Shown here: positions 1 through 7,152 of the stretch, in pieces
Position numbering within the stretch: position 1 is the stretch's first letter
How the letters are laid out: each line of letters starts with the position of its first letter
From: a virus
Taxonomy: Duplodnaviria > Heunggongvirae > Uroviricota > Caudoviricetes
IMG/VR virus record: IMGVR_UViG_3300030035_000037
Location: 1 to 7,152 of that record
Reading direction: 5' to 3' (one strand)
DNA length: 7,152 nt
Position numbers and translations under genes: made by a program
Notes under the pieces: generated by a model
What the model saw: the letters and a program-made list of their open reading frames with translations, nothing else
What the model was told of the DNA's origin: nothing
Databases searched by the model: none

Positions 1-80
1 AACTGCAGGAACCAGTAGCCCGTTCCCACCGCTGACGTGGTGTATGACACACCTGTTGTGATTTTTTCCATCTGGTACAT
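1..80 (-). CDS. S: Class II holin (S21-like pinholin), N-terminal 26 codons only; gene continues beyond the window start
   Basis: Minus-strand translation from ATG (rc of 78-80) gives MYQMEKITTGVSYTTSAVGTGYWFLQ, closely resembling the recalled N-terminus of phage 21 S holin; dual-start Met1/Met4 as in holin/antiholin pairs; GGGAGA Shine-Dalgarno about 8 nt upstream. Not in the ORF track because it is truncated by the window edge. Confidence 0.7.
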   Translation of the reverse strand, partial: MYQMEKITTGVSYTTSAVGTGYWFLQ

Positions 81-155
81 ACCCCGTCTCCCGCAATCCG
101 GAAGCTCACAACAACAAGAGGGGCGTCAGCTCACACCGACAGCCCCTGCGCATGG

Positions 156-425
156 TTACATCATCATTTCGCCGTCAGGCTGAGGCTCACTGCTACCATC
201 AGGCTGAGACCCGACGCCATCTGAAACAGCACTGTCATCCGCAATGCCTTCCGGCTCCGGAACAGTCGGTGCGCCCAGCAGTTCATCCAGAATGGCATCC
301 ACTTCTGCATCAAGACGCGCCTCAAGGTTCTGCCGAAGTTGCTGTTTCAGTGCGCTTCTGACTTCTTCAGAGCGCAGGACTTCCTTCACTGCTTCAGCAG
401 TGACCAGCGATTTTATTTCTGACAT
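156..425 (-). CDS. Hypothetical small protein (89 aa) with a helical N-terminal half and a highly acidic Asp/Glu/Ser/Pro-rich tail
   Basis: ORF-track frame 156..539 begins at a TTG; the first ATG is at 425 (MSEIKSLVTAEAVKEVLRSEE...), with a weak GAGAAA Shine-Dalgarno. Sits between the esterase and the holin. No recognisable motif. Confidence 0.45.
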   Translation of the reverse strand: MSEIKSLVTAEAVKEVLRSEEVRSALKQQLRQNLEARLDAEVDAILDELLGAPTVPEPEGIADDSAVSDGVGSQPDGSSEPQPDGEMMM

Positions 426-462
426 GGTATTTTCTCGTTGAAAGGTGTTGTTAAGAAAGTTG

Positions 463-645
463 CTACGGAATGAGAGGCTCTTCGGGTTTTGTTCCGGCTG
501 ACTGACTGGCACTGATTTTCTCAGCGGCCCTTTTGTCAATCTGTCTGCGCCAGAAATCTCTCACGACTCTGTACCCACCCGAAAGAAGATACAGCACACA
601 GACCGCCGTACAGAAGTACAGCATCACCTGATGAATAAATGTCAT
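463..645 (-). CDS. Hypothetical small single-pass membrane protein (60 aa)
   Basis: ATG at 645; hydrophobic stretch FIHQVMLYFCTAVCVLYLL followed by a basic cluster RVVRDFWRRQIDKR (positive-inside); weak ribosome-binding site. Confidence 0.4.
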   Translation of the reverse strand: MTFIHQVMLYFCTAVCVLYLLSGGYRVVRDFWRRQIDKRAAEKISASQSAGTKPEEPLIP

Positions 646-663
646 AATTTCTTACCGTTATGG

Positions 664-692
664 TTGACAATGAGAATTGTTTTCATTTAAAA
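664..692 (+). promoter_or_regulatory. Candidate sigma70 promoter on the plus strand, antisense to the late operon
   Basis: Perfect -35 TTGACA at 664-669; -10-like TTTAAA/TTAAAA at 686-692 with a 16-17 nt spacer; predicted start near 698-700. Confidence 0.3.
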
Positions 693-742
693 AACCAATG
701 TACGAAAGCATCTTTTCTTTACATTCTCCATTGGGATTACCT

Positions 743-779
743 CCGCCAGCTTCCATTCCTGCCGCTGGCGGCTTTTTTT
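743..779 (+). terminator. Rho-independent terminator on the plus strand
   Basis: 8-bp GC-rich stem CCGCCAGC (743-750) / GCTGGCGG (764-771) with a 13-nt loop, followed by TTTTTTT at 772-778. On the minus strand there is no U-tract after the hairpin. Confidence 0.45.
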
Positions 780-784
780 AGCAA

Positions 785-2650
785 TTATGCGGCTGCTCCA
801 GCTTTGTTTGCTTTAACTTCCACCGTATCAATAAGTACAGGGTAGGTTTCTGCACTACCTGTAATATCCGTAATGACAAACCTGTTGAGTCCATTAGCAG
901 TATTGGCCCATTTCACCAGGTCAAACGCCTGTCCATCCACACCATCAAGCACCGGAGTAACATTAATGCTGTTACTGCCCTTAAATTTAAATGCAAGCGT
1001 ATGCCAGTCATGGTCGAATGCGCCAAACGTGCCAAGTTCTTTTTGTTGATTAACTGTATGATGGTATGCAACATTAATACTGGCTTTATCTGTCTGGACA
1101 AAGAAAGAACTCAGATGGCCTTCACCACCCTCACCCGGCCATTCCGCTATTCGCCAGTACAAACCAAAGGCATACTTGTTTCTGGTTGTCTCAAGATTGA
1201 CGTTTTCGGGGATTTTAAACCGGACAGCAATTTCCCCGCCTTTTTCCAGTAAAAGTTTTGCCTTGTCTGCAGCAATATCACAGTACATTGACCAGGATTT
1301 CGCGCTGTTATTTTTCTCAATTCGCAGAGCTTTATTGCCGCTGTCATCAACCAGTGTGCGTCTGCCATACATACCGTCCCAGCCATAAGGTTTCAGCTGA
1401 TTGTCTGTAGCTTTTTTGGCATCGTAAAAAATTACAGACTCTGAGGTGGTAACCGGCCTGTCTGGAACAACCACCCCGGCAGTACCATTAACAAACGCAG
1501 AAGACTTACCCGCGCAGCTCAGAATCGCCGTTGCCAGACGGTCGGAAATAATCCCACGGCGAGCCCATGAACTGAAATGGCTCGCCCTGTCCTGTGACGT
1601 CCAGGTGGCTGAGCTGTCACGCCATTTCGAACCGTAATAACCGATACCCGGAATGTCCGGGTCTTCTTCCGGTTTGTTCGTCGGCACATTCACCCCGTTC
1701 TCATCGGTCATGAACGGTACGAAATGGATATTCTTTTCCGTTTTATTTTTATAGCTGCCGTACACCGTCTGGTACGTGGATTCGTTCTTCTGCTTCCAGA
1801 AATACGTCGTGTCCCCGCATATCCAGGGAACACCGCCAGCAGAGCCACCGACGCACTGGCCTGCCATATCCGCCAGGTCTGCACGGAATTTATCAACCAG
1901 CGCACCAAACTGTGCGGCATGATTTGCCGGCGTACCGCCAAAATCAAATTCCCCCTGCATCCACACCACGGCAAACAGCACATTTTTCGGGTTCTTCTCC
2001 AGTGCCGCTTTTGTTCGACCGATAAGGTCCTTATACAGCGGCTTGTCCACACCCCAGCGGGTTGAATTCTCCGAGGCACCACTCGCGTCACTGTATGTGC
2101 CATCAGCTCCGGTGGTGAACGCTGAACCACCACGACAGCACGGAACCAGCAGAATGCCCGCATTCGCCGGTATAAACGGCAGCAGTTTTTTGGCGATATG
2201 CAGCCCCTGCCCCACGGTTCCGTACTGCCCCTTTGACAGGTCCGCTTTCGGATGGTTAAGACGGCTCATGTCCTGCACATCATGCAGACAATGGTCCGCC
2301 GGAATGATGTCGTTATATTTGCATGCTGCACCGCCCGGTGTCACCGTACTGCGACGCGCCAGTTGCTTAATACGCGGGTCCGGACGGTCATATGTCCCCG
2401 GCAGCGGAAGGCCTTCACCATACGACATGCCGTTTGACTGCCCTGCCAGAACCACAACAAAGTAATACTCCGGGTCGCTGGTGGCGCTGATTACTGCACC
2501 TTCTGCTGCAATCGCCTGCATCAGAGTATAAGGGGTTATGGCCACCGGACTACCAAACGGCTGCCAGCCCTCTTTCAGTTTATGTGTCAGCTTTTCCGCA
2601 AGATCTGACGGCGACGCCGCCCTGACAACATCATAGTGTTTAAATGCCAT
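785..2650 (-). CDS. nanS-p: Prophage-encoded sialate 9-O-acetylesterase (NanS-p type; N-terminal DUF1737-like region, SGNH/SASA esterase core, C-terminal carbohydrate-binding region)
   Basis: 621-626 aa ORF; GQSNGMSYGEG motif typical of SASA/SGNH esterases; conserved position downstream of the toxin/moron site and upstream of lysis genes in Stx-type phages. ORF-track start is 2665 (MVERTM...); ATG at 2650 (MAFKHYDVV...) is preferred because GGA lies 7 nt upstream. Confidence 0.88.
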   Translation of the reverse strand: MAFKHYDVVRAASPSDLAEKLTHKLKEGWQPFGSPVAITPYTLMQAIAAEGAVISATSDPEYYFVVVLAGQSNGMSYGEGLPLPGTYDRPDPRIKQLARRSTVTPGGAACKYNDIIPADHCLHDVQDMSRLNHPKADLSKGQYGTVGQGLHIAKKLLPFIPANAGILLVPCCRGGSAFTTGADGTYSDASGASENSTRWGVDKPLYKDLIGRTKAALEKNPKNVLFAVVWMQGEFDFGGTPANHAAQFGALVDKFRADLADMAGQCVGGSAGGVPWICGDTTYFWKQKNESTYQTVYGSYKNKTEKNIHFVPFMTDENGVNVPTNKPEEDPDIPGIGYYGSKWRDSSATWTSQDRASHFSSWARRGIISDRLATAILSCAGKSSAFVNGTAGVVVPDRPVTTSESVIFYDAKKATDNQLKPYGWDGMYGRRTLVDDSGNKALRIEKNNSAKSWSMYCDIAADKAKLLLEKGGEIAVRFKIPENVNLETTRNKYAFGLYWRIAEWPGEGGEGHLSSFFVQTDKASINVAYHHTVNQQKELGTFGAFDHDWHTLAFKFKGSNSINVTPVLDGVDGQAFDLVKWANTANGLNRFVITDITGSAETYPVLIDTVEVKANKAGAAA

Positions 2651-2843
2651 GGTTCTTTCCACCATCTGAAAAATGATTCTTTAAAATACCTGACATGTAA
2701 TACAGAAAAAACACAAAACCATACCTTAAATAAAAACCTCATCATCAAGCAGATATGCATGGATAAACTACAAGACGAGATATAAACCACCCTGCATTTA
2801 AATAAACAATAAACAACATCAGAAAAATAATTCTGCTCTATGG

Positions 2844-2870
2844 TTTACATTCAAAAATATCATTTATACT
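2844..2870 (+). promoter_or_regulatory. Candidate sigma70 promoter for the plus-strand cargo ORF
   Basis: -35 TTTACA (2844-2849) and -10 TATACT (2865-2870); spacer is 15 nt, which is short, so this is a weak call. Confidence 0.3.
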
Positions 2871-2910
2871 TTTCAGAACATCACCAGCAATGCATAAACA
2901 AGGAAACCAA

Positions 2911-3246
2911 ATGAAGTGGATTGTGATTGATACAGTTATCCAGCCATCATGCGGAATATCTTTTTCAGTCATATGGAGTAAAATAAAATTAATAATCTGG
3001 TATCAATCGGATGCTTTCTTACCTCCTGAAAGTATATTTACACTGACTCACACAGGCATCATGCTCAATAACAAAGTGCTACCTGTAACCATTTACAACG
3101 TAGTACCATTCAATAAAACATTCTGGAATTTAATCAAAAACAGCCAGGAATGCCCTACAAATACAGATAACGTATTGAATGAATGCTTTAATAACCGTTG
3201 CACTCTGCAAATATGTCCTTATGGGCTAAAACAACAAAGTCCATAA
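2911..3246 (+). CDS. Orphan hypothetical protein (111 aa) in an AT-rich island, opposite strand to the phage late operon; moron/cargo gene candidate
   Basis: ATG at 2911 with AGGA 6 nt upstream (the ORF-track start at 2890 lacks a ribosome-binding site); more than 110 open codons in visibly AT-rich DNA is unlikely by chance; 6 of 13 Ile codons are the rare ATA; four Cys cluster in the C-terminal 30 residues (C-x10-C-x4-C-x4-C). No family recognised. Confidence 0.5.
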
Positions 3247-3282
3247 GGAGTTTACTCACATCTGACAAAATCAATATAAACA

Positions 3283-3302
3283 GCCCCTCCGGAGAGGGGC
3301 TG
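3283..3302. terminator. Perfect 8-bp GC-rich stem-loop bounding the AT-rich island; possible terminator or mRNA 3' stabiliser for the cargo ORF
   Basis: AGCCCCTC cgga GAGGGGCT at 3283-3302, 37 nt after the cargo ORF stop; no clean U-tract on either strand. Confidence 0.35.
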
Positions 3303-3498
3303 GAGAGTGGCGCTATGTGCCATTGCATGGTGCCGGGTGCCTCCCGGTGAATTCAGTACCAGCACCTGAATCCGCGATTATCCCATATACCTACTCGCTG
3401 ATTGCCCCTCCGCACAGGGGGATTCACCATGCCAGTTTCTTTTAACAAACTCCCCGCAAACCAGACAACAGTCAACCGCCTGAATTGTGAGACATTTA

Positions 3499-3524
3499 AA
3501 AAAAAGGCCCGCAAAAGCGAGCCA
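3499..3524 (-). terminator. Rho-independent terminator of the tRNA operon (minus strand)
   Basis: Minus-strand GGCTCGC tttt GCGGGCC (3524..3507) followed by eight U (rc of A-run 3499-3506); begins 14 nt after the 3' end of the last tRNA. Confidence 0.7.
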
Positions 3525-3537
3525 GGGAAAATAAGTG

Positions 3538-3614
3538 TGGCGCGTTGTACTGGATTCGAACCAGTGACCGATTGCTTAGAAGGCAATTGCTCTGTCCGGC
3601 TGAGCTAACAACGC
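3538..3614 (-). tRNA. argO: tRNA-Arg, anticodon TCT (reads AGA)
   Basis: Manual fold of the minus strand: 7-bp perfect acceptor GCGTTGT/ACAACGC, D-arm GCTC..GAGC, anticodon loop CTTCTAA, T-loop TTCGAAT, encoded CCA. Gene symbol assigned only from the conserved ileZ-argN-argO order of Stx-type phages, recalled from memory. Confidence 0.9.
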
Positions 3615-3628
3615 AGGATACAGATAAT

Positions 3629-3704
3629 GAACCGCCTTCGGGGACCCGAACTCCGCGCAACCAGCTTCGAAGGCTGGCGCTCTTTCCTGATGAGCTAATG
3701 GCGG
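3629..3704 (-). tRNA. argN: tRNA-Arg, anticodon TCG; atypical (possibly divergent or degenerate)
   Basis: Manual fold: acceptor CCGCCAT/AAGGCGG (6 of 7 pairs), D-arm GCTC..GAGC, anticodon stem CCAGC/GCTGG with loop CTTCGAA, T-arm CGGAG-TTCGGGT-CCCCG (one A-C mismatch, G at the usually invariant A58), 3' TCA instead of encoded CCA. Exact 3' end is uncertain (3629-3631). Confidence 0.6.
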
Positions 3705-3711
3705 TATGTGA

Positions 3712-3787
3712 TGGTGGCCCTTGCTGGATTTGAACCAGCGACCTGGCGATTATGAGTCGCTCGCTCTCACCACTGAGCTAAAGGGCC
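3712..3787 (-). tRNA. ileZ: tRNA-Ile2 type, anticodon CAT (lysidine-dependent AUA decoder); a tool may call it tRNA-Met
   Basis: Manual fold: perfect acceptor GGCCCTT/AAGGGCC, anticodon loop CTCATAA, T-loop TTCAAAT, encoded CCA; overall very close to the recalled E. coli ileX sequence. Confidence 0.88.
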
Positions 3788-3796
3788 GGGAGCAGA

Positions 3797-3825
3797 ATAA
3801 TAATGGTGCGTAATTAATTCTGCAA
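3797..3825 (-). promoter_or_regulatory. Candidate sigma70 promoter for the tRNA operon
   Basis: Minus strand: -35 TTGCAG (3825..3820), 17-nt spacer, -10 TATTAT (3802..3797); predicted start 2-4 nt upstream of the mature 5' end of the first tRNA. Confidence 0.45.
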
Positions 3826-3836
3826 TCTCATCCGTT

Positions 3837-4886
3837 TCAAACGATTAAATCCTGAACTTCCCTGACTGTCTGCTCAAAACGTCCTGTCTCCAGTTCAACG
3901 CCAATCGCACGACGCCCGAGCGCCAGTGCCGCTTTTACCGTTGAACCCGACCCCATGAAAAAATCCGCAACCAGATCACCAGGACGACTGCTTGCGCTGA
4001 TTATCTGCTGCAGCATTTCTGCCGGTTTTTCGCACGGATGTTTCCCGGGATAGAACTGCACCGGTTTATGTGTCCACACATCCGTGTACGGCACCTGCGC
4101 CGTCACACCAAAATACCGCCGCAGATGTTTATATTCACTCTGCAGCTCCGCATACTGTCGGTTCAGTGAAGTATACGTATCCACCAGCTGGTGGTGGGGC
4201 TTTTCCAGTTCCCCCCGCTGATGCTTCTCTTCTGCCACCCTGGCAAACAGTGCCTGTAATTTCAGATAATCGCTTTCGTTCGGCAACTGCCACTGACTGG
4301 CACTGAACCAGTGCGACACCATGTTTTTCTTTCCTGTGGCATCTGCAATCTGTTTTGCCGTTATCCCCAGGGCCGCGCATGCATCACGAAAGTAAGAAAT
4401 CAGCGGGGCCATCACATGCTGTTTCAGTGCCCTGCCCTTCGCCTCATACCCGGCATCTTTCGGACGATACGGCCCCTGATAATGTTCCGCGAACAGAATG
4501 CGCTCTGTGGCGGGGAAATACGCCCGCAGGCTTTCCTTGTTGCACCCGTTCCAGCGTCCGGAAGGCTTCGCCCAGATAATATGGTTCAGCACACTGAAGC
4601 GTTCACGCATCATGATTTCGATATCAGATGCCAGGCGATGACCACAGAACAGGTAAAGACTTCCGGCAGGTTTCAGCACCCGCCAGAACTGCGCCAGACA
4701 CTGGTCCAGCCACTTCAGGTAATCATCGTCGCCCTTCCACTGGTTATCCCAGCCCTCAGGCTTCACTTTAAAGTACGGCGGGTCCGTGACTATCAGGTCA
4801 ACAGAATTTTCGGGTAACGACCGGATAAATTCCAGGCAGTCGGCGTTGATTAACTCACAACTGGATATTTTTACAGTATTAAGCAT
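3837..4886 (-). CDS. DNA methyltransferase, beta-class (motif IV before motif I), predicted N6-adenine specific; orphan (no cognate nuclease in window)
   Basis: 349 aa; SVDLIVTDPPY near the N-terminus (DPPY favours N6-adenine over N4-cytosine SPPY); AdoMet motif DFFMGSGST near the C-terminus; architecture of the N6_N4_Mtase family. Weak Shine-Dalgarno; a GATC overlaps the start region at 4887-4890. Confidence 0.9.
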   Translation of the reverse strand: MLNTVKISSCELINADCLEFIRSLPENSVDLIVTDPPYFKVKPEGWDNQWKGDDDYLKWLDQCLAQFWRVLKPAGSLYLFCGHRLASDIEIMMRERFSVLNHIIWAKPSGRWNGCNKESLRAYFPATERILFAEHYQGPYRPKDAGYEAKGRALKQHVMAPLISYFRDACAALGITAKQIADATGKKNMVSHWFSASQWQLPNESDYLKLQALFARVAEEKHQRGELEKPHHQLVDTYTSLNRQYAELQSEYKHLRRYFGVTAQVPYTDVWTHKPVQFYPGKHPCEKPAEMLQQIISASSRPGDLVADFFMGSGSTVKAALALGRRAIGVELETGRFEQTVREVQDLIV

Positions 4887-4980
4887 GGATCATTAAGCCT
4901 GTCTCTGATAGGCTCATTCTGCTTTTGCGCAAAGCAGTGGGCCTGAGGTTTGCTTGTGAACCCAACGCATGAGCAGATGG

Positions 4981-5007
4981 CTGGTGGGTGCCCCTAACAC
5001 CCACCAG
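4981..5007 (-). other. Perfect 10-bp GC-rich inverted repeat with 7-nt loop in the methyltransferase 5' leader
   Basis: CTGGTGGGTG ccccTaa CACCCACCAG at 4981-5007; no U-tract on either strand, so not a canonical intrinsic terminator. Confidence 0.5.
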
Positions 5008-5026
5008 CCGCCCATTTACCACAAAT
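5008..5026 (-). repeat. Second, truncated copy of the pR' -10 core (ATTTGTGGTAAAT followed directly by GGGCGG)
   Basis: Minus strand 5026..5008 ATTTGTGGTAAATGGGCGG versus pR' (5441..5411) ATCTGTGGTAAAT-TTGCTCTAACGAT-GGGCG: 12 of 13 identical then GGGCG, with the 13-nt initial transcribed segment absent. Confidence 0.55.
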
Positions 5027-5050
5027 AAAAAAGCCTTCACTGCGGAAGGC
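5021..5050 (-). terminator. Rho-independent terminator after the small winged-helix-like ORF
   Basis: Minus strand GCCTTC cgcagt GAAGGC (5050..5033) followed by TTTTTTATTTGT (5032..5021); the ORF stop codon (5037-5039) lies inside the stem. Confidence 0.6.
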
Positions 5051-5234
5051 GTCTGTAACAACCGAACTGATAGTCTGCCAGACCCGCCATAACCAGCTGG
5101 GTCAGTATTAACTGGCAGCGTTCGCGTGAAAGGTAAGTATTCTGTGCAATCTCCCCGACTGTCGCCGGTTCGGTAACGCTTAATTCATTAAACACTACTC
5201 TGGCGGTTTCTGTCATATCCTGCTGTTTTAGCAT
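5037..5234 (-). CDS. Small hypothetical protein (65 aa) with a predicted winged-helix/HTH-like segment; possible DNA-binding regulator
   Basis: ATG at 5234 preceded by AAGGGA; ORF-track version 5037..5321 starts at a GTG and is less likely. Segment TVGEIAQNTYLSRERCQLILTQLVMAGLA has the pattern of a winged-helix recognition region (PapI/FaeA- or MarR-like); weak, pattern-only assignment. Confidence 0.45.
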   Translation of the reverse strand: MLKQQDMTETARVVFNELSVTEPATVGEIAQNTYLSRERCQLILTQLVMAGLADYQFGCYRRLPQ

Positions 5235-5354
5235 GTCTTTTTCCCTTTTCCGGTTAACGTGACACACCAATAACTCTTGTCGAAAAAGCCAGCAAGCTGA
5301 AAGACAGGTATTCACCGCCACCAGCGCGTTTACTGTACTGACGCGATTTCAGTC

Positions 5355-5378
5355 ATAAAAAACCCGCCAGGCGGCGGG
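5355..5378 (-). terminator. tR'-like Rho-independent terminator downstream of pR'
   Basis: Minus strand CCCGCC gcct GGCGGG (5378..5363) followed by TTTTTTAT (5362..5355). Confidence 0.7.
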
Positions 5379-5421
5379 GTGTAAAAAATCTTCTAACGTC
5401 AGGCATAAAACGCCCATCGTT
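5355..5421 (-). ncRNA. Predicted short pR' leader transcript (about 65 nt), analogous to lambda 6S RNA / the StxS sRNA of Stx phages
   Basis: Predicted start at A 5421 (7 nt after the -10) and tR' U-tract ending near 5355; contains an A/U-rich single-stranded stretch before the terminator hairpin. Existence inferred from promoter plus terminator only. Confidence 0.5.
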
Positions 5422-5455
5422 AGAGCAAATTTACCACAGATTCGGGAAAAATCAA
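5416..5455 (-). promoter_or_regulatory. Late promoter pR' (lambda-like) with extended -10 and promoter-proximal pause element; presumed Q engagement site
   Basis: Minus strand -35 TTGATT (5455..5450), 16-nt spacer, TGg-TAAATT extended -10 (5433..5428), then TGCTCT and AACGATGGG at +1 onward; the -10 plus AACGAT arrangement matches lambda pR' as recalled from memory. Lies 6-45 nt downstream of the Q stop codon. Confidence 0.65.
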
Positions 5456-5460
5456 CAACA

Positions 5461-6282
5461 CTATCGCGTTACCCTCTTTAACTGCCGCTCCGCCCATGCC
5501 TCTTCAATGTCAAACCGAACCACCAACGTATCGTAAAAGCGTTTCACTGATTTTTTCCACGTATCAAGCGTGATAGCACTCGTCACTTTGCATATGGCAT
5601 TAAATGCCTCCGTTGATGGTAGTCTTTCACAGCCACGACCACCACAACGCTGGCAGTCTCTGATAACAGGCATACCACGTTTTACCGACTCTTCACGATG
5701 AATGGCGACACCACGCCCACGGCAATCCTTACAGGCGGTGGAAACCTCACCCTTTCCGCCACACTCCGGACAGGCAACTTTTACCACCTCCCTGACTTTT
5801 TTCCATTCTTCCCAGTAAGACGGATACACACCTTTCGTACACTTTGCCCATACCGGCGGCTTACCATCCGGATACTGGACCTTGTTTGTAAAAACTACGC
5901 TTTCAATAAATTTTTCCCCATAGCAACAAGGGCACTGCTTTTTACTCGCTGCGCTGCGGGCATAATCCTCAAAAGCGTACGAAGCCATAATGCGCATCAC
6001 TACCGGTTTTATTTCTGCCGGGAGTTTTCTTAACGCCGCCACGCGATCACACCGACTGAGTGCATATTCTGTCAGCAATTCTGTTGCCCGCTCTCTGTCA
6101 TTCATACTAATGCCCATTTTCCCAAGGAACGCAGAAAACCCCATCTCAGCCCGATTCTGTGTCATGCCCTGCGCGGCCATCACATCAGTGATACTCAGCG
6201 CATCTTTCGACGTTGAGGCCGATGCATCAGTCAGGCCGGGGGATTTTGGGGAGTAGTATTTCGGTAAATCTTCCAGTTTCAT
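5461..6282 (-). CDS. Q: Late-gene antitermination protein Q, lambda-Q family, with an enlarged Cys-rich zinc-binding region
   Basis: 273 aa; blocks matching recalled lambda Q: YSPKSP, DVMAAQGM, ASYAFEDYARSAA, C-terminal LKRVTR; multiple CxxC pairs; located immediately upstream of the lambda-like pR'; start overlaps the rusA stop (ATGA). Confidence 0.88.
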   Translation of the reverse strand: MKLEDLPKYYSPKSPGLTDASASTSKDALSITDVMAAQGMTQNRAEMGFSAFLGKMGISMNDRERATELLTEYALSRCDRVAALRKLPAEIKPVVMRIMASYAFEDYARSAASKKQCPCCYGEKFIESVVFTNKVQYPDGKPPVWAKCTKGVYPSYWEEWKKVREVVKVACPECGGKGEVSTACKDCRGRGVAIHREESVKRGMPVIRDCQRCGGRGCERLPSTEAFNAICKVTSAITLDTWKKSVKRFYDTLVVRFDIEEAWAERQLKRVTR

Positions 6283-6659
6283 TTTTTGACCTGCCCTTCA
6301 AGCATTATGGGGTAAATCTTCACCCCCAGACGTCCACCAGATACTGGCTGAGCACGAACGATATTGATTTCATCAAACTGCTCATCGTCCATTAGCAACC
6401 CCGCATGCGTCAGCGCATCCAGCGGCGCTTTCAGAATATTGTCCAGGTCACGGCGGCGCTTATCCGGTGGTTCTGCAATAATTTTTATTGCCAACCTTCC
6501 GGACAGGCTTAATTTCAGCCGCTGCTGGCGAACAATAAGCGCCACTGCCCGGCGATAACGCTCCCCGGCTTTTGATACAAAATATGTGCTGCCACGACGA
6601 CGCCAGTAAGTGTTCACCGTTGGCGGGTAAGGCAAAACAAATTCTATGCGTTCAGTCAT
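6279..6659 (-). CDS. rusA: Crossover junction endodeoxyribonuclease RusA (Holliday junction resolvase)
   Basis: 126 aa; PYPPTVNTYWRRRG near the N-terminus and RRRDLDNILKAPLDALTHAGLLMDD acidic catalytic region match the RusA family pattern; canonical position just upstream of Q. Confidence 0.88.
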   Translation of the reverse strand: MTERIEFVLPYPPTVNTYWRRRGSTYFVSKAGERYRRAVALIVRQQRLKLSLSGRLAIKIIAEPPDKRRRDLDNILKAPLDALTHAGLLMDDEQFDEINIVRAQPVSGGRLGVKIYPIMLEGQVKK

Positions 6660-7152
6660 TTATGCTTTCCACTTCAAAACACCCGAATTTCTCGCGTGCA
6701 TTAAAAAACGAATCAGCAACAACAGCTGGCTGCCGTGTTTTTCTTCAAAATCTTTTACCCCGGCGTGTAGTTCGCTATGGCATTTACGGCACAGCGGAAT
6801 AACAAACAAATCATCAGCCTTTGTTCCCATCCCTCCCAGTCCATGACCAATGATGTGATGCGGATCATCTGCCTGATTGCCACACGTCATGCATTTCTGC
6901 GTTTTTACCCAACGCGTGTATACAGGCATCTCTTCCCGTTGTGATTTCTGGCGCTGGAGATACTGAGCCGGTGACTCCGGATCAACGGCAATGCTGACCA
7001 CCGTCTTTTCCTGTGGCGGGTTTTGCTGGTGGGCGTGAGGCAGCGGCGCAAGATTTTTTGTGCGCTGCTTCAGTATGCTGGTGGCGGTCTGCTCTCCCGG
7101 TACGATGTCGCTTTCACGGTACATTGAGCGGATTTTTTCCGCACGCAACCCC
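6660..7152 (-). CDS. Cys/His-rich HNH-motif protein (DUF968/YdfU-like), C-terminal part; likely continues beyond the window end
   Basis: Frame is open to the right window edge; C-terminal motif CMTCGNQADDPHHIIGHG...IPLCRKCHSELH (CxxC ... HH ... CxxCH) resembles an HNH zinc-binding nuclease fold; stop TAA abuts the rusA ATG. Family name is from memory and unverified. Confidence 0.55.
   Translation of the reverse strand, partial: GLRAEKIRSMYRESDIVPGEQTATSILKQRTKNLAPLPHAHQQNPPQEKTVVSIAVDPESPAQYLQRQKSQREEMPVYTRWVKTQKCMTCGNQADDPHHIIGHGLGGMGTKADDLFVIPLCRKCHSELHAGVKDFEEKHGSQLLLLIRFLMHARNSGVLKWKA

Follow-up and report, generated by a model that had tools for sequence, protein, structure and literature searches.

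Related systems

The RssB anti-adaptor IraL has been studied experimentally in Escherichia coli CFT073, in which it binds RssB and stabilizes RpoS in logarithmic phase (Hryckowian et al. 2014, PMC4045071). The distribution of IraL was also described, and IraM and IraL were found to differ in the conditions under which they act and in their contacts with RssB (PMC4045071). The small RNA STnc100 is located 75 nt downstream of the stx2 operon (PMC12370729), and its copies are transcribed in EDL933, one of them having been confirmed by Northern blot (PMC5331693). A relationship of STnc100 to PasD and its association with prophage sialate esterase have been reported as well (preprint 10.64898/2026.05.13.724894). 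All parts of the interval analyzed here, namely IraL, copies of STnc100, and STnc100 downstream of stx2, are already described.

The stretch of DNA analyzed here (the window) is 7,152 nucleotides in length and comes from a Caudoviricetes record (IMG/VR IMGVR_UViG_3300030035_000037, positions 1 to 7,152). The interval of interest lies between the last tRNA gene and the esterase gene of a phage late region, and is 99.5% identical over its whole length to stx-negative prophages of many non-STEC strains. With a probability of about 0.9, we consider it to be the region of accessory genes ('morons') in the late operon of an stx-negative lambdoid prophage that is common in E. coli.

Organization of the late region

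Late transcription runs from right to left in window coordinates, and the late genes are on the minus strand.

6660–7148, minus strand: DUF968 gene (ORF list and annotation of relatives)
6279–6659, minus strand: RusA (Pfam)
5461–6282, minus strand: Q-family late antiterminator, 273 aa (Pfam PF03589, E 5e-51)
about 5037–5321, minus strand: small ORF, 94 aa (ORF list)
3837–4886, minus strand: N6/N4 DNA methyltransferase, 349 aa (Pfam PF01555, E 6e-44)
3712–3787, minus strand: tRNA with CAT anticodon, Ile2/Met (ARAGORN, Rfam)
3629–3705, minus strand: tRNA-Arg (TCG) (ARAGORN, Rfam)
3538–3614, minus strand: tRNA-Arg (TCT) (ARAGORN, Rfam)
785–2665, minus strand: NanS-p-type sialate O-acetylesterase, 626 aa, DUF1737 + SASA + DUF6645 (Pfam)
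463–645, minus strand: DUF1378 ORF (Pfam PF07125, E 6e-38)
within 156–539, minus strand: DUF826 ORF (Pfam PF05696, E 1e-36)
80–3, minus strand: class II holin, first 26 codons, cut by the window edge (translation MYQMEKITTGVSYTTSAVGTGYWFLQ)

The module order Q, tRNA triplet, esterase, and holin, on which the original prediction was built, is present (PF03589, three tRNAs, SASA/DUF1737/DUF6645, and a holin N-terminus), and this one-stranded lambdoid late-region architecture is shared with Stx phages. The DNA methyltransferase between Q and the tRNAs had been omitted from that prediction. Copies of Q in relatives are annotated "antitermination protein", and those of the esterase are annotated SASA family carbohydrate esterase or yjhS. 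The window end (1–117) is 96.6% identical to positions 3965–4081 of a relative (L003), overlapping its annotated holin (3829–4044). The DUF1378 and DUF826 pair is also found between esterase and holin in a TerB-type locus (L005).

The tRNA triplet is annotated as tRNA-Ile, tRNA-Arg, and tRNA-Arg in the RefSeq entries of relatives, and presumably corresponds to ileZ-argN-argO of phage 933W. The CAT tRNA was called Met by ARAGORN, as against tRNA-Ile in the RefSeq annotation of near-identical copies, and we take it for a lysidine-type Ile2 tRNA. The small ORF at 5037–5321 has a weak match, below the cutoff, to a TrmB-type helix-turn-helix (Pfam, E 0.0065); relatives have here a 198-nt hypothetical gene or, in O157:H7, a frameshifted 'TrmB family transcriptional regulator'. 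A terminator scan of the minus strand downstream of Q gave two terminator-like hairpins with T-runs (5378–5363 and 5050–5033), which may represent tR' and a second terminator ahead of the methyltransferase.

The anti-adaptor gene iraL

The interval's principal coding sequence is a plus-strand ORF (2890–3246) that does not appear in the original prediction.

2911–3246, plus strand: iraL, RssB anti-adaptor of the IraM/IraL family, 111 aa (identity to the CFT073 protein, NCBIfam, PDB)
2844–2878, plus strand: iraL promoter region (RACE match, placing the likely transcription start at 2878)

The predicted product is identical in 111 of 111 amino acids (100%) to IraL of the CFT073 potB prophage (WP_000871291.1). 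No Pfam model matches this ORF, and it was identified instead through NCBIfam (NF007393 for IraM, 161.7 bits against a cutoff of 121, which places it in the family) and a PDB sequence search (8twd, IraM, E 9e-32). RefSeq annotates the copies in relatives as anti-adapter protein IraM. The identity to CFT073 extends upstream of the gene, with 88 of the 90 nt preceding the start being the same, and the 5' RACE sequence of the CFT073 iraL mRNA (PMC4045071) matches window 2878–2909 at 31 of 32 nt. By reading of the sequence, a candidate promoter has a –10 element TATACT (2865–2870) and a –35 element TTTACA (2844–2849). Identity to the CFT073 protein, along with that of promoter and transcription start site, marks the gene as specifically IraL.

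The translation start of iraL is likely ATG 2911. An in-frame ATG 21 nt upstream (2890–2892) results from a T specific to the window, the corresponding base in CFT073 being G. This ATG is inside the mapped 5' UTR, and its use would add seven residues. It is probably not the start, although it is the choice of the ORF finder, as it is created by the single mismatch in the RACE match.

K-12 IraM (b1160, next to the cryptic prophage e14) is a member of this protein family and is 62% identical to the window protein, but the upstream regions of the two genes do not align, no alignment being found upstream of the start codon. The upstream region of K-12 iraM is PhoP-dependent. Since the upstream regions do not align, no regulatory inference was carried over from iraM to iraL.

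By analogy to CFT073, the window gene is expected to be active. IraL would bind the adaptor RssB, RpoS would then not be passed to ClpXP, and RpoS would accumulate during growth. A lysogen would in this way gain a prophage-encoded boost to its general stress response.

The STnc100 sRNA gene and terminators

The minus strand of the interval contains an sRNA gene and two intrinsic terminators.

3523–3506, minus strand: intrinsic terminator right after the tRNA cluster, GGCTCGC-TTTT-GCGGGCC then T8 (terminator scan)
3461–3272, minus strand: STnc100-family sRNA gene (Rfam RF02076; related to PasD) (cmscan)
3302–3281, minus strand: sRNA intrinsic terminator, 9-bp G+C-rich stem (7 G-C pairs) then TTTATATT (terminator scan, Rfam consensus 3' hairpin, fold)

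The sRNA gene belongs to the STnc100 family, matching the full model (1–206) with 132.4 bits, as compared with a gathering score of 47 (cmscan, E 8e-30), and has a Rho-independent terminator at its 3' end. Its fold is modestly more stable than those of shuffled sequences (z –1.86), and the identification therefore rests on the covariance-model score and not on energy. By analogy with described copies, the window's STnc100 is presumably expressed as an sRNA. A scan and reading of the minus-strand sequence directly upstream of the sRNA gave no convincing sigma-70 promoter; TTGACT at about 3477–3472 was considered as a –35 element and rejected, there being no acceptable –10 at proper spacing. The sRNA may either have a promoter of its own or be processed from a longer RNA.

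STnc100 is a constant element, lying 66–79 nt downstream of the preceding gene in every locus type compared. The preceding gene is stx2B in the Stx2a phage Stx2_EH1846 (L002; 75 nt), stx1B in L006, DUF3927 in L005, and tRNA-Arg in L008 and the window. The post-tRNA terminator is also retained, being found upstream of stx2A in EH1846 and upstream of TerB in L005.

Two small ORFs in this region (3402–3608, plus strand, and 3353–3586, minus strand) were rejected as genes; they have no Pfam family match and overlap the sRNA and tRNA. In public annotations, the strand opposite STnc100 carries a 'hypothetical protein' or pseudogene (window 3317–3445, plus strand; L003 6718–6843; L006 3901–4224), which is probably an annotation artefact of a structured sRNA region rather than a gene. 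Weak Rfam matches to Plastid-ycf2 and P26, below their gathering scores, were treated as chance. Phage vB_EcoS-640R1 has two tandem copies of STnc100 between tRNA and iraL (L001 5622–5810 and 6086–6279), indicating that the sRNA module can be duplicated.

The toxin site is empty

The window was searched for toxin genes with Stx2A and Stx2B from phage Stx2_EH1846 and with Stx1A and Stx1B from the Stx1-converting phage AP005153. Against the whole window, tblastn with the four proteins gave nothing below E 0.26, and word-7 blastn with the stx1 and stx2 cassettes gave chance matches of 13–16 nt only. The absence of stxAB claimed in the original prediction is thereby confirmed, and the comparison with stx loci that it had called for reveals no residual stx fragment. 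A Shiga-toxin-converting phage has stxA and stxB coding sequence in its late operon, and the window has neither. The gap between the last tRNA and the esterase is small, as had been said, although its size is 872 bp (2666–3537) rather than about 890 bp. The statement that it has no minus-strand ORF of at least 60 aa is strictly wrong, as a 67-aa GTG ORF (2587–2790) overlaps the esterase start; this ORF is, however, meaningless.

The site of the toxin cassette in relatives can be located in the window by alignment.

about 3494–3501: empty cassette junction (alignments to L002 and L005)

Window 1509–3494 aligns to positions 2536–4545 of the EH1846 locus (about 81% identity), and window 3497–5377 aligns to its positions 5878–7760 (94% identity). 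The 1332 bp between these aligned blocks in EH1846 hold stx2B and stx2A. With collinear flanks and the 1332-bp stx2AB segment missing, the window is equivalent to the EH1846 arrangement minus the cassette. Likewise, window 1520–3501 and 3497–7140 flank a 748-bp TerB/DUF3927 cassette in L005.

The frequency of each form was determined with 161–201-nt probes spanning each junction, at ≥80% coverage, in 5,426 complete E. coli genomes. The empty junction occurs in 1,020/5,426 genomes, the tRNA-Arg/TerB junction in 823/5,426, and the tRNA-Arg/stx2A junction in 592/5,426, making the empty form the most frequent of the three probed. A 1,021-bp probe gave 1,378 genomes, a number that may include TerB-bearing loci, as pieces up to about 1 kb apart were joined, and the short probes were used instead. 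Unrelated lineages (O157:H7 and O145) share the 161-nt empty junction with 100% identity; in a non-Stx prophage of O157:H7 PV15-279, it is 100% identical to the window over these 161 nt.

The stx2AB and TerB/DUF3927 cassettes start with nearly the same 10–11 nt (ATATCTGCGCC / GTATCCGCGCC) after the T-run of the tRNA terminator, as seen by comparing window 3494–3505, L002 5860–5880, and L005 5845–5865. The motif is absent from the empty junction, and a similar string (ATCTGTGTC) recurs at the other cassette end in the Stx2a phage. This shared motif could be a recombination footprint or could be due to chance.

Comparison with related prophages

The potB prophage of CFT073 is stx-negative and carries the identical IraL, with window 2497–3502 being 98.7% identical at the DNA level. 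Its genes follow the same order, consisting of Q, tRNA-Ile/Arg/Arg, the STnc100 region, convergent iraL, DUF1737/esterase, and holin. In CFT073, however, the segment from tRNA-Arg to the sRNA region is longer by about 640 bp, which include a DUF3927 gene. An IS200 follows Q in that locus, the methyltransferase is missing, and the esterase is truncated, whereas the esterase of the window is intact and the junction is empty.

Stx2a phages (Stx2_EH1846, LC567840; 933W/Sp5 type) share with the window the methylase, tRNA triplet, terminator, STnc100, a convergent IraM-family gene, NanS-p esterase, and holin. On the methylase/tRNA side, DNA identity to EH1846 is 94%. Unlike the window, EH1846 has the 1332-bp stx2AB cassette at the site that is empty here. 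Identity is only about 81% on the sRNA/IraM-like/esterase side and 73% for the IraM-like protein, and the Q type is different. Non-Stx prophages with TerB and DUF3927 (E. coli IBS28 and STEC1589) have the same backbone and Q type as the window, with 90% identity over 3497–7140, along with STnc100 and an IraL-type protein that is 90% identical. They differ in having the 748-bp TerB/DUF3927 cassette at the site that is empty in the window.

These comparisons give a map of the region in which a constant sRNA is flanked by two positions that vary independently. Position A, from the tRNA terminator to STnc100, has no cassette in the window, stx2AB in Stx2 phages, and TerB and DUF3927 in IBS28/STEC1589-type strains. 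Position B, from STnc100 to the esterase, is occupied by iraL in the window and CFT073 and by the 73%-identical IraM-like paralog of IraL in Stx2a phages. It lacks an iraL-type gene in the PV15-279 prophage, which has the empty junction and the sRNA. The experimentally studied IraL is thus a cargo gene of a late-region module, adjoining the toxin site.

Origin of the stx-negative arrangement

The original prediction had offered two descriptions of the locus, an stx-negative relative of Stx phages or a toxin-replacement derivative whose slot holds different cargo. The description as an stx-negative relative holds up well, as window and EH1846 align collinearly to the left and right of a clean 1332-bp absence, which comprises stx2A, stx2B, and short flanks. 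The replacement explanation, by which iraL, the sRNA, or both were inserted for stxAB as alternative cargo in the same slot, has some appeal, since iraL, an accessory gene that modifies the host and has its own promoter, is located between the tRNAs and esterase, at roughly the position of stx. But the supposed substitutes coexist with the toxin, as stx2AB, STnc100, and the IraM-like gene occur together in Stx2a phages (L002), and the order and orientation of the last two, downstream of stx2B, match those in the window. Because Stx2a phages carry both elements alongside stx2AB, the sRNA and iraL adjoin the toxin site and are not substitutes for the toxin. The O157:H7 non-Stx prophage points the same way, having the empty junction and the sRNA without iraL. 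This prophage and the coexistence in Stx2a phages indicate that the iraL position varies independently of the toxin position, and we consider replacement to be extremely improbable.

A descendant of an Stx phage might instead have recently lost exactly stxAB, either by recombination with an empty-site relative or by deletion. The precise match of the missing segment to the boundaries of the stx2AB cassette and the 94% identity of the tRNA/methylase side to EH1846 would fit such a loss, as would the highly mosaic nature of lambdoid prophages, the window itself being a patchwork. The sRNA/iraL side tells otherwise, as its identity is only about 81% with the Stx2a phage but 98.7–99.5% with stx-negative prophages (CFT073 potB and others). 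Neither a scar nor an stx remnant was detected in the window, and the 161-nt empty junction, identical in O157:H7 and O145 and present in 1,020 genomes, resembles a stable circulating allele rather than the outcome of repeated deletions. We therefore regard recent loss as very unlikely, if somewhat less so than replacement. The closest relatives of the interval are all stx-negative. As these nearest relatives lack stx and the Stx2a allele is only about 81% identical, no recent toxin-bearing ancestor is indicated, and the lineage appears not to have undergone a recent toxin loss. The window thus has a late region like that of Stx phages, without stx and with no sign of a toxin swap, and its reading as an accessory-gene region of an stx-negative prophage prevents a misreading of this kind.

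Convergent transcription

In the accessory-gene region so understood, the minus strand would be read through the tRNA triplet, the intrinsic terminator, the empty cassette junction, and STnc100 with its own terminator. iraL, on the opposite strand and convergent with STnc100, would be transcribed from its own sigma-70-type promoter. The sRNA terminator (3281–3302) has no T-run on the plus strand, and is thus not an obvious terminator for iraL. For this reason, read-through from iraL into STnc100 is possible, and transcripts from iraL may extend over the STnc100 gene in antisense orientation. In the other direction, Q-antiterminated late transcription could proceed past both minus-strand terminators after induction and run antisense across iraL. 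The convergent layout might even constitute a switch, in which IraL and high RpoS would be restricted to lysogeny and turned off on induction, with iraL activity tied to the level of the sRNA. We consider this proposal, which is drawn from gene layout, to be unlikely.

Mosaicism of the window

In a collection with one genome per species, neither a 40-mer from the esterase nor a 33-mer spanning the empty junction had an exact match. No match to the whole window was found in complete E. coli genomes, the best coverage being 74–86%. This is because the part made up of the esterase 3' half and DUF1378/DUF826 comes from a different mosaic block. Window 118–1518, which comprises the esterase 3' part and DUF1378/DUF826, is absent from the nearest relatives of the slot, and is only 81–85% identical to Stx phages. 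The esterase gene is itself mosaic, with its 5' part (1509–2504) being 96.5% identical to the Stx1-converting phage AP005153.
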